In this document: piece after piece, positions 16,370 through 46,473 of the stretch
Numbering within the stretch: the stretch's first letter is position 1
Layout: each line of letters starts with the position of its first letter
Virus record (IMG/VR): IMGVR_UViG_2563366824_000001
DNA from: a virus
Lineage: Duplodnaviria; Heunggongvirae; Uroviricota; Caudoviricetes
DNA: 46,473 nucleotides
Reading direction: 5' to 3' (one strand)
Made by a program: the position numbers and the translations under genes
Notes under the pieces: generated by a model
Told to the model about the DNA's origin: nothing
What the model saw: the letters and a program-made list of their open reading frames with translations, nothing else
Database searches by the model: none

Positions 16370-16585
16370 ATGAAATCAATGGATAAGTTAACAACAGGTA
16401 TCGCCTATGGCACATCGGCTGGTAATGCTGGTTTCTGGGCATTGCAGTTACTCGATAAAGTAACTCCGTCACAGTGGGCTGCAATCGGTGTGCTGGGTAG
16501 TCTGGTTTTTGGCCTGCTGACGTATCTGACAAACCTTTATTTCAAGATTAAAGAAGACAGGCGTAAGGTTGCGAGAAGAGAGTAA
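16370..16585 (+). CDS. Class II holin (phage 21 S-type, EssD/EssQ-like)
   Basis: 71 aa [28 protein letters not shown] ... with two TM helices and a charged C-terminus; SD gaggat. Confidence 0.85.
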
Positions 16586-16589
16586 TCCA

Positions 16590-17141
16590 ATGACACAAGA
16601 CTATGAACTGGTTGTGAAAGGAGTCCGCAATTTTGAGAATAAAGTGGCGGTAACTGTAGCCTTACGGGACAAAAAACGCTTTGACGGTGAAATTTTTGAC
16701 CTGGACATCTCGCTGGACCGTGTTGAAGGTGCCGCGCTGGAGTTTTATGAGGCAGCAGCCAGAATGAGAATCAGACAGGTATTCCTGGATGTTGCTGCCG
16801 GGTTATGTGTAGGGGATGAGCAGTCGCCGGAAAAGCGCCCCATAATTTTAGAGGCGCAGAATGTGTGGATAACCTACAAAGGAAAGCTACCGGGAAGAAT
16901 TACTGGTTCTCTGAAGACGCCACCGACGGCATTGCGGTCAGAAAAAGATGATATTGAATCGCCCATTGAAAAACTGGAGGGCAGCGTCGCTGATCTGAAT
17001 AAAAAATTGTCGGTGCTGATCCCTTCTGAAGATGAAAAAAAACGCCGCGATGAGCAGTTTGCGGCGTTTTACGATTATTGCATTGAAGTTACTCGCAGGA
17101 ATTTTGTGAAGATTTTTGAGGAGGGTAAATCTCTTCAGTAA
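16590..17141 (+). CDS. Hypothetical protein between holin and endolysin (possibly YdfR/DUF1327-like)
   Basis: 183-aa ORF from MTQDYELVVKG...; family assignment from position and memory only. Confidence 0.5.
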   Translation: MTQDYELVVKGVRNFENKVAVTVALRDKKRFDGEIFDLDISLDRVEGAALEFYEAAARMRIRQVFLDVAAGLCVGDEQSPEKRPIILEAQNVWITYKGKLPGRITGSLKTPPTALRSEKDDIESPIEKLEGSVADLNKKLSVLIPSEDEKKRRDEQFAAFYDYCIEVTRRNFVKIFEEGKSLQ

Positions 17142-17355
17142 GCTTAATGGCGGACGCTGCAATTAATTCAGGAAGGTCCGCAAGGTCATCTGTCAGTGGA
17201 TATGATGAAAAATCGGCGGCAGTTCTGTTAAGAAGCGCTTTAACTAATTCCTTTTCCTTCTCCGGCAACAAGTTGATTAGAGCTACGACTGCTTGCCTGA
17301 GTGCGATTAAATCAGCAAAAGTTTGTTTTGGTAGATTTGTGTAATCCATAGTCAC
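17089..17355 (-). CDS. Possible small protein antisense/convergent to the 3' end of the preceding gene
   Basis: 88-aa ORF with helical, protein-like composition, but it overlaps the + strand gene by about 50 bp; may be spurious. Confidence 0.3.
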   Translation of the reverse strand: MTMDYTNLPKQTFADLIALRQAVVALINLLPEKEKELVKALLNRTAADFSSYPLTDDLADLPELIAASAIKLTEEIYPPQKSSQNSCE

Positions 17356-17462
17356 CTCTGTGTTTATCAGATTGACATCCTCCTCCCGCCAGTGCCCATC
17401 ACTGGTGAGGTAAGATTTAACATATCCGGGGATTTGAAGCCGATAAATCCTGATAAATATCC

Positions 17463-18490
<1,028 letters not shown>

Positions 18491-37219: not shown

Positions 37220-40200
37220 ATGGGTAAAGGCAGCAGTAAGGGGCATACCCCGCGCGAAGCGAAGGACAACCTGAAGTCCACGCAACTGCTGAGTGTGATC
37301 GATGCCATCAGCGAAGGGCCGGTTGAAGGTCCGGTGGATGGATTAAAAAGCGTGCTGCTGAACAGTACGCCGGTGCTGGACAGTGAGGGGAATACCAATA
37401 TATCCGGCGTCACGGTGGTGTTCCGGGCCGGTGAGCAGGAGCAGACTCCGCCGGAGGGATTTGAATCCTCCGGTTCCGAGACGGTGCTGGGTACGGAAGT
37501 GAAATATGACACGCCGATCACCCGCACCATCACGTCGGCAAACATCGACCGTCTGCGCTTTACCTTCGGTGTGCAGGCACTGGTGGAAACCACCTCAAAG
37601 GGGGACAGGAATCCATCGGAAGTCCGCCTGCTGGTTCAGATACAACGTAACGGTGGCTGGGTGACGGAAAAAGACATCACCATTAAGGGTAAAACCACCT
37701 CGCAGTATCTGGCCTCAGTGGTGGTGGATAACCTGCCGCCGCGCCCGTTTAATATCCGGATGCGCAGGATGACGCCGGACAGCACCACAGACCAGCTGCA
37801 GAACAAAACGCTCTGGTCGTCATACACCGAAATCATCGATGTGAAACAGTGCTACCCGAACACGGCACTGGTCGGCGTGCAGGTGGACTCGGAGCAGTTC
37901 GGCAGCCAGCAGGTGAGCCGTAATTATCATCTGCGCGGGCGTATTCTGCAGGTGCCGTCGAACTATAACCCGCAGACGCGGCAATACAGCGGTATCTGGG
38001 ACGGGACGTTTAAACCGGCATACAGCAACAACATGGCCTGGTGTCTGTGGGATATGCTGACCCATCCGCGCTACGGCATGGGGAAGCGTCTCGGTGCGGC
38101 GGATGTGGACAAATGGGCGCTGTATGTCATCGGCCAGAATTGCGACCAGTCGGTGCCGGATGGCTTTGGTGGCACAGAGCCGCGCATCACCTGTAATGCC
38201 TGGCTGACCACGCAGCGCAAGGCGTGGGATGTGCTCAGTGATTTCTGCTCGGCGATGCGCTGTATGCCGGTATGGAACGGGCAGACGCTGACGTTCGTGC
38301 AGGACCGGCCATCGGATAAGGTGTGGACCTATAACCGCAGTAATGTGGTGATGCCGGATGATGGCGCGCCGTTCCGCTACAGCTTCAGCGCCCTGAAGGA
38401 CCGTCATAATGCCGTTGAGGTGAACTGGATTGACCCGAATAACGGCTGGGAGACGGCGACAGAGCTTGTGGAGGACACGCAGGCCATTGCCCGTTACGGT
38501 CGTAACGTCACGAAGATGGATGCCTTTGGCTGTACCAGCCGGGGGCAGGCACACCGCGCCGGGCTGTGGCTGATTAAAACAGAACTGCTGGAAACGCAGA
38601 CCGTGGATTTCAGCGTCGGCGCAGAAGGGCTTCGCCATGTACCGGGTGATGTTATTGAAATCTGCGATGATGACTATGCGGGGATCAGCATTGGCGGGCG
38701 CGTGCTGGCGGTGAACAGCCAGACCCGGACGCTGACGCTCGACCGTGAAATCACGCTGCCATCCTCCGGTACCACGCTGATAAGCCTGGTTGACGGGCAG
38801 GGGAGTCCGGTCAGCGTGGAGGTTCAGTCCGTCACCGACGGCGTGAAGGTGAAAGTGAGTCGGGTTCCTGACGGCGTTGCCGAATACAGCGTGTGGGGGC
38901 TGAAGCTGCCGACGCTGCGCCAGCGCCTGTTCCGCTGTGTGAGTATCCGTGAGAACGATGACGGCACGTATGCCATCACTGCCGTGCAGCATGTACCGGA
39001 AAAAGAAGCCATCGTGGATAACGGGGCGCACTTTGACGGCGACCAGAGCGGCACGGTGAATGGTGTCACGCCGCCAGCGGTGCAGCACCTGACCGCCGAA
39101 GTCACCGCAGACAGCGGGGAATACCAGGTGCTGGCGCGCTGGGATACGCCGAAGGTGGTGAAGGGCGTGAGCTTTATGCTTCGCCTGACCGTGGCAGCGG
39201 ATGACGGCAGTGAGCGGCTGGTCAGCACGGCCCGGACGACGGAAACCACATACCGCTTCAGGCAGCTGGCTCTGGGAAATTACAGTCTGACAGTCCGGGC
39301 GGTAAATGCGTGGGGGCAGCAGGGCGATCCGGCGTCGGTATCGTTCCGGATTGCCGCACCGGCAGCGCCATCGCGGATTGAGCTGACGCCGGGCTATTTT
39401 CAGATAACTGCCACGCCGCATCTTGCGGTTTATGATCCGACGGTACAGTTTGAGTTCTGGTTCTCGGAAAATCGGATTGCGGATATCAGGCAGGTTGAAA
39501 CCAGCGCGCGTTATCTTGGCACGGCGCTGTACTGGATAGCCGCCAGTATCAATATCAAACCGGGCCATGATTATTATTTTTACGTTCGCAGTGTGAACAC
39601 CGTCGGCAAATCGATATTCGTGGAGGCTGTCGGTCGGGCGAGCGATGATGCGGAAGGTTACCTGGATTTTTTCAAAGGCAAGATAACCGAATCCCATCTC
39701 GGCAAGGAGCTGCTGGAAAAAGTCGAGCTGACGGAGGATAACGCCAGCAGACTGGAGGAGTTTTCGAAAGAGTGGAAGGACGCCAACGATAAGTGGAATG
39801 CCATGTGGGCTGTCAAAATTGAGCAGACCAAAGACGGCAAACATTATGTCGCGGGGCTTGGCCTCAGCATGGAGGACACGGAGGAAGGCAAACTGAGCCA
39901 GTTCCTGGTTGCCGCTAACCGTATCGCATTTATTGACCCGGCAAACGGGAATGAAACGCCGATGTTTGTGGCGCAGGGCAATCAGATATTCATGAACGAA
40001 GTGTTCCTGAAATATCTGACGGCTCCCACCATTACCAGCGGCGGTAATCCTCCGGCATTTTCCCTGACACCGGACGGGCGGCTGACGGCGAAAAATGCCG
40101 ATATCAGCGGTAACGTGAATGCGAACTCCGGGACGCTCAACAACGTCACGATTAACGAGAACTGCCGGGTTCTGGGAAAACTGTCCGCGAACCAGATTGA

Positions 40201-40615
40201 AGGCGATCTCGTTAAAACAGTGGGCAAAGCTTTCCCCCGTGACTCCCGAGCACCGGAGCGGTGGCCATCAGGGACCATTACCGTCAGGGTTTATGACGAT
40301 CAGCCGTTTGACCGGCAAATTGTTATTCCGGCGGTGGCATTCAGTGGCGCTAAGCATGAGAGAGAGCATACTGATATTTACTCCTCATGCCGTCTGATAG
40401 TGCGGAAAAACGGTGCTGAAATTTATAACCGTACCGCGCTGGATAATACGCTGATTTACAGTGGCGTTATTGATATGCCTGCCGGTCACGGTCACATGAC
40501 ACTGGAGTTTTCGGTGTCAGCATGGCTGGTAAATGGCTGGTATCCCACAGCAAGTATCAGCGATTTGCTGGTTGTTGTGATGAAGAAAGCCACTGCAGGC
40601 ATCACGATTAGCTGA
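37220..40615 (+). CDS. J: Central tail fibre / host specificity protein J
   Basis: 1131 aa; SD ggag; position after I and size as lambda J. Confidence 0.9.
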
Positions 40616-40682: not shown

Positions 40683-41282
40683 ATGCGTAAATTATGTGCT
40701 GTTATTCTGTCCGCAGTAGTCTGGCTGGTTGCCGCTGGTACGCCAGCGAGCGCAGCAGAGCATCAGTCCACACTAAGCGCCGGGTATCTTCAGACCCATA
40801 CTGATATGCCAGGCAGTGATGACCTGAAGGGCATTAACGTGAAATACCGTTATGAATTTACGGACACGCTGGGGCTGGTGACGTCATTCAGTTATGCCAA
40901 TGCCAAAGATGAGCAAAGAACGCATTACAGCGATACCCGCTGGCATGAAGATTCAGTGCGTAACCGCTGGTTCAGCATGATGGCGGGGCCATCTGTACGC
41001 GTGAATGAATGGTTCAGTGCTTATGCGATGGCAGGTGTGGCTTACAGCCGTGTTTCGACGTTCTCCGGGGATTATCTCCGCGTAACTGACAACAAGGGGA
41101 AAACGCACGATGTGCTGACCGGAAGTGATGACGATCGCCACAGCAACACGTCTCTGGCGTGGGGAGCTGGCGTGCAGTTTAACCCGACCGAATCCGTGGC
41201 CATTGATATTGCTTATGAAGGCTCCGGCAGTGGCGACTGGCGCACTGACGGTTTCATCGTGGGTGTCGGTTATAAGTTCTGA
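40683..41282 (+). CDS. lom: Lom/Ail/PagC-family outer-membrane beta-barrel protein
   Basis: 199 aa with signal peptide and beta-barrel pattern ending ...GFIVGVGYKF; located after J as in lambda. Confidence 0.85.
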   Translation: MRKLCAVILSAVVWLVAAGTPASAAEHQSTLSAGYLQTHTDMPGSDDLKGINVKYRYEFTDTLGLVTSFSYANAKDEQRTHYSDTRWHEDSVRNRWFSMMAGPSVRVNEWFSAYAMAGVAYSRVSTFSGDYLRVTDNKGKTHDVLTGSDDDRHSNTSLAWGAGVQFNPTESVAIDIAYEGSGSGDWRTDGFIVGVGYKF

Positions 41283-41309
41283 TTAGCCAGGTAACACAGT
41301 GTTATGACA

Positions 41310-41337
41310 GCCCGCCGGTTCAGGCGGGCTTTTTTGT
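41310..41337 (+). terminator. Rho-independent terminator after lom
   Basis: gcccgcc-ggttca-ggcgggc followed by TTTTTT. Confidence 0.65.
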
Positions 41338-41346
41338 GGAGTGGAT

Positions 41347-43746
41347 ATGGCAGCAGTAAAAATCTCAGGTGTGCTGAAAGATGGTGCGGGAAAACCAATA
41401 CAGAACTGCACTATTCAACTGAAGGCAAAGCGTAACAGCACCACGGTACTGGTGAACACGGTGGCTTCTGAAAATCCGGATGAAGCCGGACGTTACAGCA
41501 TGGATGTTGAGTATGGCCAGTACAGCGTCACCCTGCTGGTTGAAGGTTTTCCGCCTTCACATGCCGGGACCATCACCGTGTATGAAGATTCTAAGCCGGG
41601 GACGCTGAATGATTTTCTCGGTGCCATGACGGAAGATGATGTCATGCCGGAGGCATTGCGTCGTTTTGAGGAAATGGTGGAAGAAGCGGCACGCAACGCT
41701 GAAGCCGCCTCTCAGAGCGCAGCGGCGGCAAAGAAATCCGAAACTGCAGCGGCATCATCGAAGAACGCGGCGAAAACCTCAGAAACGAATGCAGCTAATA
41801 GTGCACAGGCGGCAGCGACCTCAAAGACTGCATCGGCAAACTCCGCGACAGCAGCCAAAAAATCAGAAACCAACGCGAAAAATAGCGAGACAGCCGCAAA
41901 GACGAGCGAAACCAACGCAAAGTCCAGCCAGACGGCAGCGAAAACCAGCGAAACGAATGCCAAAGCCAGTGAAACTGCGGCAAAAAACAGCCAGGTTGCA
42001 GCAGCCCAAAGCGAGAGCGCGGCAGCCGGTTCTGCGACTTCAGCAGCTGGATCAGCAACTGCTGCGGCTAACAGCCAGAAAGCTGCGAAGACGAGTGAAA
42101 CTAACGCAAAGTCCAGCCAGACGGCAGCGAAGACCAGCGAAACGAATGCCAAAGCCAGCGAAACTGCGGCGAAAAACAGTCAGGATGCAGCAGCCCAAAG
42201 CGAGAGTGCTGCAGCTGGTTCTGCAAGCGCGGCGGCTGCTTCTGCCACTGCATCAGCCAACAGTCAAAAAGCAGCAAAAACCAGTGAAACCAATGCAAAG
42301 ACAAGCGAGACTGCAGCGGCGAACTCGGCGAAAGCATCGGCAGCAAGCCAGACAGCAGCTAAAGCAAGTGAAGACGCAGCCAGAGAGTATGCAAGTCAGG
42401 CAGCAGAGCCGTATAAATATGTCTTACAGCCACTGCCTGATGTGTGGATACCGTTTAATGATTCACTGGATATGATTACGGGCTTTTCGCCGTCATATAA
42501 AAAAATTGTTATTGGTGATGATGAAATAACGATGCCTGGCGACAAGGTTGTTAAGTTTAAACGCGCATCAACTGCCACATATATCAATAAATCAGGCGTA
42601 TTTAGTGTTGCTAAAATTGATGAGCCACGATTTGAAAAAGAAGGTTTATTGATTGAAGGACAGCGCACTAACTATTTTGTTAAATCCAATACTCCCGCTG
42701 AATGGACGAGTACCAGCAATATCGATAAAACTAATAATGGTGTTGATGAATTTGGTTTTTCATATGCCAAAATGCGAACAAAAGATAATATGACAGGACA
42801 ATCATCTGCACTTAGTCTGCATACATGCAGTGCATCCCGGGGGATTGATGTTAGTGGCGATAATAAGTATTGCACTGTTTCATGCAGGGTTAAAGCTCCT
42901 GATGGTCTTCGTTGTCGTTTGCGTTTTGAAAAATACGATGGGTCGGTTTATACATTTTTAGGAGATGCTTATTTAACTTTCGGAACTCTGATAATAGAAA
43001 AAACTGGCGGAGCAGCCAATAGAATAGCAGCTACTGCAACTAAAGATCCGGTTACAGGGTGGATTTTCTATGAGGCAACTATAGAAGCTGTTGAAGGTGA
43101 AACCTTAATTGGCGCAATGATTCAGTATGCGCCGAAAAAAGGTGGTATAACTGAAGCGGGAGATTATATTTACCTTGCAACACCACAATTTGAAAACGGC
43201 GGATGTGCTTCATCTTTTGTTATTACGACAACTGCACCCGCAACCCGCTCCAGTGATATGGTGACGATCCCAACTGAAAATAATATCTATAATAGACCGC
43301 TTACGTGTCTTGTCGAGGTTAATAGAAATTGGGGCGATATTCCTCCTAATGTAGCACCGCGTATTTTTGATTTTTCTGGTGTGCCACCTATTGAGTCAAT
43401 TACATACGCTTTTAACACAACTGAGAAATATTACGGTCAGCTTTATATGCAAACTTATAAAGCGTCGACAAGTACTTACGTTTCTAGTGTGTTTGCTGGT
43501 CGAACTGATGTTCGAAAATTCATTGGTGGTTTTAATATTTATTCTGATGGTACTAAACGAGTAGTTTCTAACGGTGAGGCTACTAAAACTATGAAAACGG
43601 AGTGGACGGGCGTAAAAACACGGACCTTTATTCGAATTGGAGGTCAAGCCACATCGGGAACTCGTCATCTATTCGGCCATTTGAGAAATCTTCGTCTCTG
43701 GCATAAAGAATTAACTGATGCGCAAATGGGGGAGAGTATTAAATGA
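41347..43746 (+). CDS. stf: Side tail fibre protein Stf with Ala/Thr/Ser-rich repeat region and a divergent C-terminal domain
   Basis: N-terminus AVKISGVLKDGAGKPIQNCTIQLKAKRNSTTVLVNTVASENPDEAGRYSMDVEYGQYSV matches lambda Stf; C-terminus ends ...LRNLRLWHKELTDAQM (LamG/ConA-like signature); AT-rich 3' half. Confidence 0.85.
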   Translation: MAAVKISGVLKDGAGKPIQNCTIQLKAKRNSTTVLVNTVASENPDEAGRYSMDVEYGQYSVTLLVEGFPPSHAGTITVYEDSKPGTLNDFLGAMTEDDVMPEALRRFEEMVEEAARNAEAASQSAAAAKKSETAAASSKNAAKTSETNAANSAQAAATSKTASANSATAAKKSETNAKNSETAAKTSETNAKSSQTAAKTSETNAKASETAAKNSQVAAAQSESAAAGSATSAAGSATAAANSQKAAKTSETNAKSSQTAAKTSETNAKASETAAKNSQDAAAQSESAAAGSASAAAASATASANSQKAAKTSETNAKTSETAAANSAKASAASQTAAKASEDAAREYASQAAEPYKYVLQPLPDVWIPFNDSLDMITGFSPSYKKIVIGDDEITMPGDKVVKFKRASTATYINKSGVFSVAKIDEPRFEKEGLLIEGQRTNYFVKSNTPAEWTSTSNIDKTNNGVDEFGFSYAKMRTKDNMTGQSSALSLHTCSASRGIDVSGDNKYCTVSCRVKAPDGLRCRLRFEKYDGSVYTFLGDAYLTFGTLIIEKTGGAANRIAATATKDPVTGWIFYEATIEAVEGETLIGAMIQYAPKKGGITEAGDYIYLATPQFENGGCASSFVITTTAPATRSSDMVTIPTENNIYNRPLTCLVEVNRNWGDIPPNVAPRIFDFSGVPPIESITYAFNTTEKYYGQLYMQTYKASTSTYVSSVFAGRTDVRKFIGGFNIYSDGTKRVVSNGEATKTMKTEWTGVKTRTFIRIGGQATSGTRHLFGHLRNLRLWHKELTDAQMGESIK
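41893..42221. repeat. Two roughly 144-bp direct repeat copies (about 185-bp period) inside stf, over a background of shorter 33-bp-period repeats
   Basis: AAKTSETNAKSSQTAAKTSETNAKASETAAKNSQ.AAAQSESAAAGSA is encoded twice (about 41893..42036 and 42078..42221) with near-identical DNA. Confidence 0.7.
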
Positions 43747-44024
43747 AAGATTTAACACTCAAATTTGCAGACAGGGTCGACTTTTCGGCCTTTATGGAGA
43801 GCATTGGCTATTATGATGACGAGTCGATGCAGGATGATATTCTTATTGACGTGATAGGTAATGTGTACAAAGAAACCGGAGAACTTACTGAAGATGGCGA
43901 GCCGGTATGTGTTAAGGAGGACGGATATTTTGTAAATGTGCGCATCATTAATGATTCGCAAATATCGTCATTATTCGATGAACACGCGGTTGCTGTTGAG
44001 CATCAACTCCGTAGCTGGATGTGA
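43743..44024 (+). CDS. Hypothetical protein downstream of stf (possible fibre-associated chaperone/adaptor)
   Basis: 93-aa acidic ORF, ATGA-coupled to the stf stop; AT-rich. Confidence 0.5.
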   Translation: MKDLTLKFADRVDFSAFMESIGYYDDESMQDDILIDVIGNVYKETGELTEDGEPVCVKEDGYFVNVRIINDSQISSLFDEHAVAVEHQLRSWM

Positions 44025-44033
44025 GGAAGAAAA

Positions 44034-44738
44034 ATGGCTACATCGACAGTAATTCCTGATGACATCAAAACGCTAAAGGGAGATGTCAGTAAGGCAAAGG
44101 AAGATATTTCCTCAATTAACGTAAAAGTATCAACGCTTCAGACTGATATGGACAGTGCAAAGCAGGATATCAGTACCAGATACACAAAAACAGAAGTGGA
44201 TAATAAGCTGAAAAACAAAGTGGAAGTGAACGATCTGGAAAGTGGTCGTTATGGCGGAGATTTTTACCCGCTGACTGGCCGTGAAGCGTTTTATTTATGG
44301 GGATTGGGCACAACTACAGCGGCGGCAAATCTTTATCTTAATCCTGACCCTGCAATTTCGTCTGTGCTGCGGTCAACATCGTCTATCCGCTATAAACATT
44401 CAGTAGAGACGATAGATTCAGAGCACGCCGATCTCATTTTCAGGATGCGCCCTGTGTGGTACAGGTCGCAATGCGAAAATGACAGGCGTGACTGGGGATT
44501 CTATGGATTGATTGCCGAGGAAGTAGGAGAAATTGCCCCTCAGTTTGTTCACTGGCGACCAGCCAACGAAGATGATGCACCGGAAACCATTTCCAGCAAT
44601 GGCCTTGTTGCCGAAGGTGTAATGTACGAACGTCTGGTTGTTCCACTGATTCACCATATCCAGAAACTGACTGAAAGAGTTGATGAACTTGAGTCAGAAT
44701 TGAAGTTGTTATCAACTTCCCAAAGCGATATCGGATAA
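44034..44738 (+). CDS. Small coiled-coil fibre-like protein with C-terminal S74-type intramolecular chaperone domain
   Basis: SD gagga; N-terminal heptad-repeat region; C-terminal STSSIRYKHSVETIDS ... RPVWYRS ... GFYGLIAEEVGEIAPQFV ... ERLVVPLIHHIQKLTERVDELESEL fits the S74 pattern. Confidence 0.55.
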   Translation: MATSTVIPDDIKTLKGDVSKAKEDISSINVKVSTLQTDMDSAKQDISTRYTKTEVDNKLKNKVEVNDLESGRYGGDFYPLTGREAFYLWGLGTTTAAANLYLNPDPAISSVLRSTSSIRYKHSVETIDSEHADLIFRMRPVWYRSQCENDRRDWGFYGLIAEEVGEIAPQFVHWRPANEDDAPETISSNGLVAEGVMYERLVVPLIHHIQKLTERVDELESELKLLSTSQSDIG

Positions 44739-44748
44739 AGGAGGAGTA

Positions 44749-45042
44749 ATGGATATAACACCTTTTCTTCATGCGCTTTGTGCTGTGGCTGCGCAGGTAA
44801 TGATTGGTCTTTTTACCGGAAACTGGGTTTACGGGGCGATAGCCGGTTGTACGTTCTTCATTGCGCGTGAACACACCCAGGCAGAATATCGCTGGATTGA
44901 AATGTTCGGGCATGGCAAGCGGATTAACATGCCGTGGTGGGGCGGTTTTGATCCGCGTGTTTGGGATGTGGCAAGCCTGATAGATTTTGCTGTGCCGGTG
45001 GTGGCGTGTCTGCTGGTCTGGCTGTTGGTTAATCGTGGGTGA
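44749..45042 (+). CDS. Small inner-membrane protein with two predicted TM helices
   Basis: SD aaggagg; hydrophobic helices LHALCAVAAQVMIGLFTGNWVYGAIAGCTFFIA and VASLIDFAVPVVACLLVWLLV. Confidence 0.6.
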   Translation: MDITPFLHALCAVAAQVMIGLFTGNWVYGAIAGCTFFIAREHTQAEYRWIEMFGHGKRINMPWWGGFDPRVWDVASLIDFAVPVVACLLVWLLVNRG

Positions 45043-45052
45043 AAAAAGGTGA

Positions 45053-45172
45053 GCTGTATATGCAACGGAGGAAGAAACCCCGTTGCTGGAAGCCTGGAAA
45101 AAGTATCGGGTGTTGCTGAACCGTGTTGATACGTCAACTGCACAGGATATTGAATGGCCAGCACTGCCGTAG
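45053..45172 (+). pseudogene. tfa: 3'-terminal remnant (39 codons) of a tail fibre assembly gene tfa
   Basis: Open frame encodes [39 protein letters not shown], matching the conserved Tfa C-terminus (...YR..L..VDTSTAPDIEWP..P, from memory); no in-frame start, and an upstream TGA at 45050. Confidence 0.55.
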
Positions 45173-45269
45173 GGTAAAACATATAAATTCTATAATTAGA
45201 TGTATCTTTCCATTTACGGCAAGGAAGGGGGCTTGGAAGACGTAAAGCATCTCACACCGAGATTATTTT

Positions 45270-45860
45270 TTATATGTCAGGTGTCTGAAGTTTTGCTTTG
45301 GCTCTTAAAATGGTTTGCCGCGAGGTTTTGAATTCCCGGGCAATGGCACTTATACTTACACCTGACTTAATTCGTTCGAATACCACCTGTTTCTGTTCTT
45401 CATTTAACACAGGTGGTCGACCAAAACGTTTCCCTGCGCCCCGGGCTCTTACTATCCCGGAATGAGTGCGTTCAAGTAAAAGGTCTCGTTCAAATTCAGC
45501 GACTGCTGAAATTACTTGCATCATCATTTTTCCTGTTGGACTGGTCAGGTCAATGCCCCCCAATGCTAAGCAATGCACTCTGATACCTGTTTCGGTCAGT
45601 TGTTCCACTGTTTTCCTGATATCCATTGCATTACAACCAAGGCGATCCAGTTTTGTCACAATCAATTGATCACCACATTTCAGGCGAGCAAGCAACCGGT
45701 TAAAACCAGGACGCTCACTGGTTGCTGCTGAGCCGCTAATGTGTTCTTCGATTATTTGCTGAGGTTTGATTTTAAAACCTGCACTTTCGATTTCCCGGCG
45801 TTGATTTTCGGTGGTCTGATCCAGAGTTGATATCCGACAGTAAGCAAAAATTCGAGACAT
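45270..45860 (-). CDS. Serine recombinase (resolvase / Pin-like DNA invertase family)
   Basis: 196 aa; N-terminal catalytic motif [13 protein letters not shown] with Ser nucleophile, LDRLG motif, C-terminal HTH ([15 protein letters not shown]). Confidence 0.85.
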
Positions 45861-46239
45861 AGTGAGACTCTATACGAAATTGGTGTACATATCATAATGC
45901 ATATCCAAAAATTATTTCGCTTATTATTGCACATATTTGTATGTATACGTTCGAAAATAAACAAATTCGGATGCAGTCCCGTAATTTTGGTGTAACCCAA
46001 AATCGATTTTTTGAAAAATGGCTTTAACTCGGTTTGTTTTTCGAACTCCGGGCGGACTCGAGAAAGACGAATAATAGTGTTGTATGTTGTTTTAGCCAGA
46101 TTTCAATTTGTTTGGTCTTGGAAAAGTGGAGCAAAAAGTTGTTAAAGTGGAAAAATGGTAAAAAAGTAGGTTGTTGCGGCATAACGTAGTTGTTGATATT
46201 TTTTAATGCATTGAAAAATTATTTTTCAGGGGGTGTTTA

Positions 46240-46473
46240 TTACACTTTACCATTTAAATTTTGGTTGTCTTTAAGAACTGATATCGCTGTTTGTAATAAT
46301 TCTTTGTTATCCAGCCATGACTTTTTCTTTATGTTTCCTTCAATGTAATCAAGCAATGTTCTGGTATTGATAGGTCTTCCCTGTTTTGCCACTTCCACGA
46401 CAGCATCTCCCAGGATAATTCTGACTTCAGGAAGCTGCGCGGGGAACCACTTTAGGGTGTCTTTTGATTTCAT
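46240..46473 (-). CDS. Hypothetical small protein; start codon is the last three bases of the window
   Basis: 77-aa ORF MKSKDTLKWFPAQLP...; promoter and SD lie outside the window, so the start cannot be validated. Confidence 0.35.
   Translation of the reverse strand: MKSKDTLKWFPAQLPEVRIILGDAVVEVAKQGRPINTRTLLDYIEGNIKKKSWLDNKELLQTAISVLKDNQNLNGKV

Follow-up and report, generated by a model that had tools for sequence, protein, structure and literature searches.

Cor (of phages phi80, N15 and T1) and Llp (of T5) are lipoproteins of the outer membrane with specificity for FhuA; in phi80, N15 and T1 the cor gene follows the tail genes, and in P2 Z/fun follows H-G. The holin genes 17.5 of T7 and t of T4 are located right after tail-fibre genes. 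T4 Imm, P22 SieA and HK97 gp15 are small integral inner-membrane proteins that are non-essential for growth. SieA is described in these terms, as a small integral protein of the inner membrane that P22 can grow without (PMC10883804). In coliphage CSP1 a Stf/S74 fibre together with the next two genes, CSP1_021 and CSP1_022, brings about an antiholin-type suppression of lysis; the two genes lie far from the CSP1 lysis cassette, and one of them encodes a holin-binding membrane protein (Kim & Ryu 2025, PMC13577005). Here we describe ORF97, the gene of a 97-aa membrane protein that closes a fibre cassette in a prophage, and compare its locus with these systems.

The window (the whole stretch of phage DNA that was analysed, 46,473 nt) contains the following features around ORF97:

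41341-43746, plus strand: side tail fibre gene stf, 801 aa, with a 'Prophage tail fibre N-terminal' domain (PF08400, E = 2e-68)
43743-44024, plus strand: gene of a 93-aa protein of phrog_1361, function unknown (PHROG match)
44034-44738, plus strand: gene of a 234-aa short fibre protein with a Peptidase_S74 intramolecular chaperone domain (PF13884, E = 4.6e-6)
44738-44746, plus strand: Shine-Dalgarno sequence AAGGAGGAG, read from the sequence, directly after the stop of the 234-aa gene
44749-45042, plus strand: ORF97, coding sequence of a 97-aa membrane protein of the PHROG 1443 family, ATG start, stop codon included
45062-45172, plus strand: C-terminal remnant of tfa (tail fibre assembly), a pseudogene (RefSeq annotation of the E. 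coli F344 locus; translation)
45270-45860, minus strand: pin-type DNA invertase gene, convergent with ORF97 (ORF list, RefSeq)

The reading frame, the Shine-Dalgarno sequence and the position between the fibre genes and the tfa remnant had all been given in the initial annotation and are borne out, with the pin invertase gene also lying downstream. The E. coli F344 locus is 99.9% identical to the ORF97 region. The TAA stop of the 234-aa gene occupies positions 44736-44738, leaving a gap of 10 nt to ORF97, and the same ORF97 frame is annotated in RefSeq as hypothetical protein WP_001545206.1. A comparison with the phrog_1443 profile yielded E = 5.6e-58, with residues 1-96 aligned to positions 1-96 of 97. 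A word-indexed search returned 564 homologues, and an exhaustive profile search returned relatives in 438 clusters at 50% identity. The ratio dN/dS was 0.145 among 42 distinct E. coli alleles. ORF97 is a genuine gene, far beyond a chance ORF. The GC content of ORF97 is 0.52 and that of the fibre genes beside it 0.42-0.46, a difference that points to an origin of its own.

Judged by its profile match, ORF97 is to be regarded as an ordinary member of PHROG 1443, a widespread and uncharacterised family. The profile search that had been proposed as a check gave this full-length match, to a family with no assigned function, and no match in Pfam, NCBIfam or PADLOC. Neither Pfam nor NCBIfam has a model of the family, and no structure of it has been solved; a sequence search of the PDB with the family profile gave no match at E <= 10, and the literature, searched by accession, PHROG identifier and phage names, held no account of it. 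The weak Pfam matches obtained among 52 distant members (PhoR, VirB3 and one Phage_holin_8, the latter with E = 0.0036) are noise of the transmembrane type. The Tai tail-assembly-interference systems were also considered; they are unrelated to ORF97 and are not membrane proteins.

That ORF97 encodes a small membrane protein agrees with both hydropathy and an AlphaFold2 model built from a 38-sequence alignment (mean pLDDT 93.4). Hydropathy delimits two hydrophobic stretches, residues 3-39 and 77-95, and two membrane helices had been claimed initially; the prediction of a membrane topology stands, but the model gives three membrane helices (residues 4-23, 26-53 and 74-96) plus a structured loop, the first hydrophobic stretch being a hairpin. 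The predicted layout is an N-terminal hairpin followed by a 36-residue loop and a C-terminal helix, with the following parts:

44758-44817, plus strand: helix 1, residues 4-23 (AlphaFold2 helix, hydropathy, conservation)
44824-44865, plus strand: membrane part of helix 2, residues 26-39, with the motif G29xxxG33 (hydropathy, conservation, AlphaFold2)
44866-44973, plus strand: conserved loop, residues 40-75, REHTQAEYRWIEMFGHGKRINMPWWGGFDPRVWDVA (invariant columns; dN/dS 0.057)
44974-45036, plus strand: helix 3, residues 76-96, followed by a very short C-terminal tail (hydropathy, AlphaFold2)

Helix 2 extends to residue 53 in the model. The same length and architecture were found in all relatives, and ORF97 is best modelled as a three-helix protein of the cytoplasmic membrane. 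The loop is the most constrained part (dN/dS 0.057 versus 0.145 for the whole of ORF97): it contains invariant columns in the alignment of closer relatives (A1), residues R40, E41, Q44, A45, E46 and W72 are preserved in the distant alignment (A2), and its sequence is nearly unchanged from E. coli to Aeromonas and Comamonas. His8 in helix 1 is almost invariant throughout the family. Invariant polar residues (H8, R40, E41, Q44 and E46) lie at one membrane face and are joined in the close family by D2, D68 and D79. Regarding the distribution of basic residues, the loop holds 5.5 K+R versus 0.6-0.8 on the opposite side of the membrane, and the K/R counts suggest that the loop probably faces the cytoplasm. 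The tail after helix 3 comprises about 4-5 residues with 0.6-0.8 K+R on average and is uncharged in comparison with those of classical holins and antiholins.

In this prophage the fibre cassette runs from stf as its first gene to ORF97 as its last. The 93-aa phrog_1361 protein is encoded immediately before ORF97 homologues in some other phages, too, and the 234-aa S74 protein also matches positions 1147-1384 of phrog_3299 (E = 4.9e-139). No inverted repeats flanking pin were detected in 41000-46473 and no invertible segment is left there, so that a location of ORF97 inside a pin-controlled invertible segment is ruled out. A crude scan of the plus strand from 43500 to 44749 for sigma-70-like promoters found none, and no terminator was found either. 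Given the 10-nt gap to the last fibre gene and the lack of a promoter-like site, ORF97 should share the late transcript of the fibres and be made along with them. Regarding the usual criteria for a moron, an autonomous insert among late genes that has its own promoter and terminator and a deviating composition, ORF97 shows the GC contrast mentioned above, and neither a promoter nor a terminator of its own was found. The terminator-plus-promoter pattern seen upstream of the family gene in EC.W1-9 was at chance level. A conserved promoter concealed in the fibre-gene remnant and travelling with ORF97 in P22-like phages was considered and dropped, the upstream regions being unalignable between contexts and the promoter scans being at chance level.

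ORF97 was detected in 1887 of 5426 complete E. coli genomes (35%), with a median of 2 and a maximum of 7 near-identical copies per carrier genome. Position statistics were computed from 155 non-redundant family loci. Across these the family gene lies directly 3' of tail-fibre or other receptor-binding protein (RBP) genes, irrespective of the RBP type; the adjacency to receptor-binding genes noted initially holds as a family-wide rule rather than as an accident of one prophage. Tail-fibre clusters were found upstream in at least 45 of the 155 loci and downstream in 1. Regarding the viral loci, a co-directional gene of at least 350 aa occupied position -1 or -2 in 50 of 72, versus 14 of 72 for the downstream side, and the gap to a co-directional upstream gene was 30 nt or less in 41 of 58, including 25 overlaps. 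The family gene is shown to be usually translationally coupled to the preceding RBP gene. In HZ41 it overlaps a putative tailspike ORF by 4 nt (ATGA-type), and Aeromonas HP1-like prophages show such an overlap with the fibre gene.

Near-identical ORF97 proteins follow a 234-aa S74 ORF, a 346-aa S74 ORF, a 92-aa ORF lacking S74, and P22-like tailspikes; more distant members follow P1-like fibres, P2/HP1-like fibres and Mtd-like targets of diversity-generating retroelements (DGR). An association specific for S74 fibres was rejected, because an S74 fibre lies upstream in only 19 of the 155 loci, a count that did not change with more seeds and iterations. The genes after the family member differ (lysis cassette, head genes, integrase or invertase), and mid-operon arrangements occur as well (fibre - family gene - scaffold - major capsid protein; fibre - family gene - HP1_ORF34). 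In P22-like phages the family gene lies between tailspike and integrase. In phages of alpha-, beta- and gamma-proteobacteria, relatives are encoded at the end of tail-fibre cassettes. PHROG 1443 was already known as a family; its place at the end of RBP cassettes in many unrelated phages of Proteobacteria is shown here. Intact copies are also found in jumbo Aeromonas phages of the genus Ferozepurvirus (about 235 kb, presumably virulent), beside structural or replication genes; in phage HC6 and Kuttervirus KFSST3, which we both take to be virulent, the gene survives after the fibre genes only as a decayed remnant. E. coli B retains an intact family gene in its decayed Qin prophage. Several species of Aeromonas carry syntenic chromosomal orthologues in the order pirin - family gene - RIO1, and sphingomonads carry chromosomal copies among housekeeping neighbours.

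Endolysin-type genes were found at positions +1 to +4 in 16 loci, compared with 1 upstream, and small transmembrane proteins at +1 in 15 of 73 viral loci versus at -1 in 2 of 73. Pfam searches of the downstream neighbours recovered one GTA_holin_3TM together with endolysins of seven families. In Comamonas (L005) and in L267/L268 the lysis cassette begins with a membrane-protein gene that the family gene overlaps; in Aeromonas phage 62AhydR11PP the family gene overlaps an upstream phrog_1544 membrane-protein gene, whose product we read as holin-like, a reading that Pfam did not confirm. Pfam likewise did not confirm a 167-aa neighbour in an Aeromonas phage as a GTA_holin_3TM protein, and the single match of that name probably stems from a similar protein in L267. 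A P1-like phage-plasmid has the family gene followed by a 104-aa gene in the lydA position and then LydB; in EC.W1-9 it is followed by Phage_holin_8, holin, endolysin and Rz, and in three loci (L113, L188, L200) it lies immediately before the endolysin gene. The holins and endolysins near family genes belong to many unrelated types. The main association of the family gene is with fibre genes, and the approximately 10-25% of loci that are followed by lysis genes may reflect the base rate of lysis cassettes after tail genes.

Our best guess, which is tentative, is that ORF97 may be a late-acting accessory that times lysis at the cytoplasmic membrane. It would be made late, from the late transcript and together with the fibres; its loop would engage a conserved component of the host inner membrane rather than an outer-membrane receptor; and late in lytic growth it would modulate the permeabilisation of the membrane in a generic way, delaying or timing holin-dependent lysis with an antiholin-like effect such as that of the non-homologous membrane protein encoded after the CSP1 fibre. 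Such a role would differ from that of a receptor-blocking exclusion factor. Because the neighbouring holins are of unrelated types and the loop is invariant, binding of a specific holin is unlikely and any effect on lysis would have to be generic. In favour we count the constraint on the gene, the three-helix model with the loop inside, the late co-expression with the fibres, the rule of position, the lysis genes and small membrane proteins downstream, and the precedent of CSP1. The remnants in HC6 and KFSST3 are also counted in favour, as they show the family gene to be dispensable in some lytic phages. Several observations stand against lysis timing: another holin candidate is present in every lysis cassette that adjoins a family gene, the window already has a complete lysis cassette 27 kb from ORF97 (16370-18490; dual-start S21-like pinholin at 16370-16585, SAR endolysin at 17463-17996, and Rz/Rz1), the C-terminal tail is short and uncharged, and the lysis genes downstream are perhaps a matter of base rate only. 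The chromosomal orthologues in Aeromonas and sphingomonads argue for a function at the level of the cell, which a lysis timer leaves unexplained.

The analogy with Cor and Llp from which the initial annotation derived a superinfection-exclusion factor fails. A mask of this kind, in which ORF97 would block the outer-membrane receptor of the adjacent fibre, can hardly be credited: its position beside RBP genes is the single point in favour, and the N-terminus (MDITPFLHALCAV) has neither a signal peptide nor a lipobox, there being no basic n-region, Leu at position -1 relative to Cys11, and A, I or V in place of this unconserved cysteine in homologues. Moreover, ORF97 is predicted to be an integral three-helix protein, the same protein accompanies many different RBPs, and almost nothing would be exposed to the periplasm if the loop is cytoplasmic. 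Exclusion at the inner membrane is a different matter, although we consider it rather improbable; here ORF97 would stop translocation of the incoming genome by way of a conserved component of the host's inner membrane, whatever the RBP, and with an effect resembling that of T4 Imm, P22 SieA and HK97 gp15. Its small size and predicted integral position in the cytoplasmic membrane (hydropathy, AlphaFold model) are consistent with this, as are the slots it occupies, after fibre genes and, in P22-like phages, between tailspike and integrase, both of them known for conversion and exclusion genes. The syntenic orthologues of Aeromonas fit a domesticated defence gene, and the intact copy in the decayed Qin prophage and the mere remnants in HC6 and KFSST3 point the same way. 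However, exclusion genes need early or prophage expression, and for this reason the coupling to late genes of the fibres and the lack of a recognisable promoter, both seen here and at most loci, count against exclusion. Several near-identical copies in one genome would not be expected if a resident copy excluded related phages, and the invariance of the loop across genera is unlike what is seen in known exclusion proteins and in arms-race proteins. The negative searches of PADLOC, Pfam and NCBIfam and the intact copies in the jumbo Aeromonas phages also speak against it.

A host-directed membrane function apart from phage entry or lysis (lysogenic conversion or physiology) is likewise unlikely in our estimation; ORF97 might, for example, act on a conserved pathway of the envelope, either as a small regulator or as an enzyme, with its gene placed at a permissive late-operon end. 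This would suit the stable chromosomal orthologues with their housekeeping neighbours, the invariant polar cluster, which in the alignments looks like a binding or catalytic site, the GC contrast with the fibre genes and the commonness of the gene in E. coli. It leaves unexplained the strict place directly 3' of RBP genes, even in the middle of structural operons, and no fold or sequence similarity of ORF97 to any enzyme or regulator and no partner gene conserved beside the family gene were found. That ORF97 is a membrane-anchored helper for maturation or delivery of the upstream fibres, i.e. a fibre-linked factor of assembly or quality control, would accord with the tightest and most general association, a place immediately after the fibre gene and often overlapping it, and in P2/HP1-like prophages the family gene occupies the place that the fibre chaperone gene G has in P2. 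Nevertheless it is very unlikely, as the invariant loop is set against unrelated types of RBP, the gene has decayed in HC6 and KFSST3 while working fibres are kept, chromosomal orthologues have no fibre genes nearby, and we know of no caudovirus fibre chaperone that is an integral membrane protein. Very improbable, too, is that ORF97 is itself a holin, the hole-forming protein of lysis. Small size, three predicted transmembrane helices, the few loci with the gene immediately before the endolysin and the weak Phage_holin_8 match of one distant member would suit a holin, but ORF97 itself has no Pfam holin match and no charged C-terminal tail, its long, invariant and structured loop is atypical, the prophage has its own pinholin, another holin candidate was present in all 16 loci with a downstream endolysin, and chromosomal family copies exist.

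A broader reading, offered as speculation and rather improbable, would see in PHROG 1443 a pan-proteobacterial family of three-helix proteins of the inner membrane, found in phages and in cells, whose invariant cytoplasmic loop binds a universal inner-membrane machine and gates permeabilisation generically, in lysis timing or in genome entry, whatever the holin or RBP. Made with the fibres as the last gene of the RBP cassette, its members would form a new class of phage membrane effector lacking homology to known holins, antiholins and exclusion proteins, with a domesticated branch in Aeromonas and sphingomonads. About one in three complete E. coli genomes carries ORF97, often in several prophages. 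If lysis timing is true, the gene would control lysis independently of the holin and travel with host-range cassettes; if a block of entry is true, it would be a very common, unrecognised determinant of phage resistance, of relevance to phage therapy and to tail-fibre swaps. On either reading the invariance of the loop points to a target that is conserved in the host and would be worth finding, and the family gene conveniently marks the 3' boundary of RBP modules.

Compared with the known systems, ORF97 shares with Cor and Llp that all are small accessory proteins encoded beside receptor-binding genes; it differs in lacking a lipobox, in its three predicted membrane helices and in not being bound to a single RBP type. 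Imm, SieA and gp15 are, like ORF97, small integral inner-membrane phage proteins, but they are expressed early or from the prophage, are narrowly distributed and show no homology to it (Pfam, PADLOC), whereas ORF97 is coupled to late fibre genes. T7 gene 17.5 and T4 gene t resemble ORF97 as genes of small membrane proteins encoded immediately after fibre genes, a likeness extended by those family loci that run straight into endolysin genes; ORF97 is set apart from them by its uncharged tail, the presence of another holin, the long invariant loop and the chromosomal orthologues. Regarding CSP1, homology was rejected: BLAST and HMM comparisons of ORF97 with CSP1_021 and CSP1_022 gave no sequence similarity, nor was there a match to Pfam LydB or any other match that would suggest an antiholin. 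CSP1_021 also differs in its length of 235 aa, its single transmembrane helix and its requirement for the fibre and CSP1_022, and the CSP1 activity was demonstrated by experiment, whereas an effect of ORF97 is proposed by analogy. The CSP1 fibre combines a lambda Stf-type N-terminus with an S74 chaperone C-terminus and matches the N-terminus of the window's Stf (E = 4e-20) as well as the S74 ORF (E = 2.5e-5); like ORF97, the CSP1 genes lie directly 3' of a Stf-type/S74 side tail fibre and distant from the lysis cassette, and both loci encode an inner-membrane protein after the fibre.

ORF97, the gene for a 97-aa membrane protein, is a true gene rather than a chance open reading frame. The profile phrog_1443 matched it across its full length (E = 5.6e-58), 564 relatives were found in a word-indexed search, and an exhaustive profile search yielded 438 clusters at 50% identity, all of them stand-alone proteins, most 90-130 residues long within a range of about 60-146, the shortest apparently truncated. 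The gene is present in 1887 of 5426 complete E. coli genomes (median 2 copies, maximum 7), and at least 999 contigs encode the identical protein, always named 'hypothetical'. For 42 distinct alleles taken from E. coli prophages, dN/dS was 0.145, with values of 0.057 for the loop (residues 40-75), 0.22 for helices 1-2 and 0.45 for helix 3. The uncharacterised phrog_1443 was the only family match in the profile search that the initial annotation had called for; Pfam, NCBIfam, PADLOC and a PDB sequence search gave no match. In some alleles (IMG/VR E. coli prophages L075, L078, L079, L080 and L082; proteins P0006 and P0008) the stop codon is lost, with readthrough (…LVNRGRKK…) towards the tfa remnant; the resulting products of 118-146 aa indicate that the C-terminus tolerates extension.

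Hydropathy places hydrophobic stretches at residues 3-39 and 77-95. The AlphaFold2 model (38-sequence alignment; mean pLDDT 93.4, pTM 0.79) has helices at 4-23, 26-53 and 74-96 and thus splits the first stretch into a helical hairpin, so that of the two-helix membrane protein initially described the membrane nature stands, but the predicted number of helices is three. Among aligned close relatives (57-92% identity; Escherichia, Aeromonas, Comamonas, Leclercia, Enterobacter, Citrobacter and Salmonella) the helices vary, whereas hardly any change is seen in the segment REHTQAEYRWI..FG.GKR.NMPWWGGFD.R.W; H8, G29, R40, E41, Q44, A45, E46, W72 and P83 are kept down to 28% identity. Lysine and arginine residues number about 5.5 in the loop, 0.2-0.9 in the N-terminus and 0.6-0.8 in the hairpin turn and C-terminal tail together. 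By the positive-inside rule, this skew indicates that the loop probably faces the cytoplasm, with the N-terminus in and the C-terminus out.

The gene order in the window agrees with the initial placement of ORF97 between the fibre cassette and the tfa remnant:

Genes and features around ORF97 in the window
37220-40615, J-type tail tip gene
40683-41282, lom
41341-43746, side tail fibre (Stf), 801 aa, 'Prophage tail fibre N-terminal' domain
43743-44024, 93-aa ORF, acidic protein, phrog_1361
44034-44738, 234-aa ORF, Peptidase_S74 (S74) intramolecular-chaperone domain
44738-44746, AAGGAGGAG motif (Shine-Dalgarno), directly 3' of the TAA stop of the upstream gene
44749-45042, + strand, ORF97, ATG start, 97 codons
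45062-45172, tfa C-terminal remnant, directly following ORF97 in gene order
45270-45860, pin-type invertase, convergent with the tfa remnant and ORF97
46240-46473, - strand, YdfK-type cold-shock gene, running past the window end

Because AAGGAGGAG abuts the stop of the 234-aa gene, ORF97 lies 10 nt from its upstream neighbour. The GC content is 0.52 in ORF97, 0.42-0.46 in the three upstream fibre-cassette genes and 0.57 in J; the compositional joint at 44738-44749 fits a mosaic boundary at which fibre cassettes are swapped beside a conserved ORF97. A counterpart with 99.9% identity in E. coli F344 is a lambdoid prophage adjoining prfC; RefSeq lists ORF97 there as a hypothetical protein and labels the piece of tfa a pseudogene. 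ydfK, a ynaM/ynfT-family gene and a dinI-like gene form the end of the prophage in the matching E. coli genome, beside prfC. The fibre of the window is split (41341-44738): Stf comprises an N-terminal anchor domain and long Ala/Ser/Thr-rich repeats (KTSETNAK.. units, about aa 130-340) without S74, which lies on the separate 234-aa ORF, itself matching the phrog_3299 profile (1385 positions) over no more than its last ~240 positions. The phrog_1361 protein is a frequent partner, and in E. ruysiae and phage-plasmid PhiR41_1 (L089, 7710-7988, and L155, 4713-4991) a 92-aa ORF of similar size lies directly 5' of the ORF97 homologue, no S74 ORF intervening. No inverted repeats were found flanking the pin/tfa-remnant region, which indicates that the fibre-switching inversion system of the window is frozen or decayed.

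Across phages, the gene follows receptor-binding protein (RBP) genes of many kinds:

Gene order around the family gene
Lambdoid coliphages: Stf, 93 aa, S74 ORF, ORF97
P22-like phage 611R6: tailspike, OafA, fibre remnant, ORF97, int
P22-like phage HZ41: ORF97 in 4-nt overlap with a 685-aa ORF in the tailspike position (record unannotated)
EC.W1-9: lyase-type tailspike (annotated 'eliminase'), remnant, ORF97, holins, endolysin, Rz
Phage-plasmid PhiR41_1: J, Stf, Stf, 92 aa, ORF97
Comamonas prophage: 2520-aa J-like protein, 72 aa, family gene, lysis cassette
DGR-bearing prophages: Mtd-like protein, family gene, Avd
P1-like Leclercia phage-plasmid: R, S-like fibres, 95 aa, family gene, 104 aa, LydB, DarA
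P2/HP1-like prophages of Aeromonas and Leclercia: baseplate J, I, S74 fibre, family gene (0-nt gap or 4-nt overlap), HP1_ORF34

For the survey, 67 loci of species-representative genomes and 127 IMG/VR loci were found with two distant sub-alignments, the family ORF was located by HMM, and neighbours were called and clustered, giving 155 loci without redundancy. Gene clusters with a tail-fibre or tail-protein annotation lay upstream in at least 45 of the 155 and downstream in 1; a co-directional gene of at least 350 aa occupied positions -1/-2 in 50 of 72 viral loci versus +1/+2 in 14. The upstream gap was at most 30 nt in 41 of 58 viral loci (negative in 25). S74-type fibres made up only 19 of the upstream neighbours, and one E. 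ruysiae contig carries two copies, each after a different fibre set. The downstream neighbour is variable: head scaffold and major capsid protein (22 loci), lysis cassette, integrase, invertase or other tail genes. The family-wide rule is that the gene stands last, 3' of the RBP genes, irrespective of RBP type.

The initial annotation had proposed a superinfection-exclusion factor like Cor or Llp. That model demands an outer-membrane lipoprotein specific to one receptor, and ORF97 departs from it in its defining features, having neither lipobox nor signal peptide, three predicted membrane helices and many RBP types as neighbours; a receptor mask of this kind is barely credible. Exclusion at the inner membrane is unlikely. 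It would suit the conversion-type slots, such as the tailspike/int interval of P22-like phages, and the chromosomal copies adjoining housekeeping genes such as ligA in sphingomonads. Several Aeromonas species likewise have syntenic orthologues that keep the loop motif, downstream of a pirin gene in at least 5 genomes (L006, L092, L094, L095, L099) and followed in L006 by RIO1 and two lipid A acyltransferase genes, the downstream side differing among the five loci; this copy is a domesticated or ancestral cellular gene. Also in favour, the degenerate Qin prophage of E. coli B (ATCC 11303), in which IS3 truncates J and stf is in pieces, retains an intact ORF97, although lom and the 93-aa and 234-aa S74 ORFs are likewise intact. 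A further point in favour is that HC6 and Kuttervirus KFSST3, which we take to be virulent, hold only decayed, unannotated remnants, directly after an S74 fibre gene (L157, 3965-4200) and a tailspike-cluster gene (L160, 3001-3156), respectively; the remnants suggest that these phages took over their fibre modules from temperate phages along with a piece of ORF97. Against exclusion, however, stand the tight coupling to late genes with no promoter or terminator found for ORF97, the multiple near-identical copies per genome, the independence from RBP type, the invariance of the loop across hosts, and intact copies in jumbo Aeromonas phages (Ferozepurvirus), presumably virulent.

A host-directed membrane function is about as doubtful as inner-membrane exclusion, and a fibre-linked assembly role is very improbable. 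Lysis offers a further thread. In a search seeded with six endolysin types, genes of this kind lay at +1 to +4 in 16 loci versus upstream in 1, and small transmembrane proteins at +1 in 15 of 73 viral loci versus -1 in 2; Pfam identified Glyco_hydro_108, Peptidase_M15_3/4, Muramidase, Amidase_2, Phage_lysozyme, Glyco_hydro_19 and one GTA_holin_3TM among 92 downstream neighbours. In Comamonas L005, and also in L267/L268, the cassette's first membrane-protein gene is overlapped by the family gene; in Aeromonas phage 62AhydR11PP the overlap is with an upstream membrane-protein gene whose product is read as holin-like, with no Pfam confirmation. Two cautions bear on this thread. The frequency of lysis genes downstream may be the base rate of lysis cassettes following tail genes, and every lysis cassette beside a family gene has another holin candidate. 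That ORF97 is a true holin is highly improbable. The prophage in the window encodes a full lysis cassette of its own, 27 kb 5' of ORF97:

Lysis cassette of the window
16370-16585, S21-like pinholin, dual start (MKSM)
17463-17996, SAR endolysin
17993-18490, Rz
18144-18440, Rz1 lipoprotein, embedded in Rz

A 190-aa ORF (16569-17141) is inserted between pinholin and SAR endolysin. Elsewhere, phrog_3108 (motif ...GLQESR...FxQFE) occupies the endolysin position in two unrelated cassettes, those of 62AhydR11PP (L004, 2499-2996) and the Comamonas prophage L005 (6970-7521, just 5' of an Rz/Rz1-like pair), and is probably an unrecognised endolysin family.

It is firmly established that ORF97 belongs, as a member in no way unusual, to a large and uncharacterised family of predicted three-helix inner-membrane proteins, which closes RBP cassettes, is predicted to be co-expressed with them and carries an invariant, probably cytoplasmic loop. 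The two strongest clues, translational coupling to late fibre genes and stable chromosomal orthologues, are reconciled by none of the explanations. The position rule and the conserved loop are new, and together make a cheap experimental test worthwhile. In the leading explanation, tentative and at well under an even chance, ORF97 would act as a late, generic lysis-timing accessory, antiholin-like in effect. A published precedent comes from coliphage CSP1, where antiholin-type suppression of lysis needs an Stf/S74 fibre together with the two genes following it, all at a distance from the lysis cassette; one of the two post-fibre genes encodes a holin-binding membrane protein with a single TM (PMC13577005); these post-fibre genes are not homologous to ORF97.
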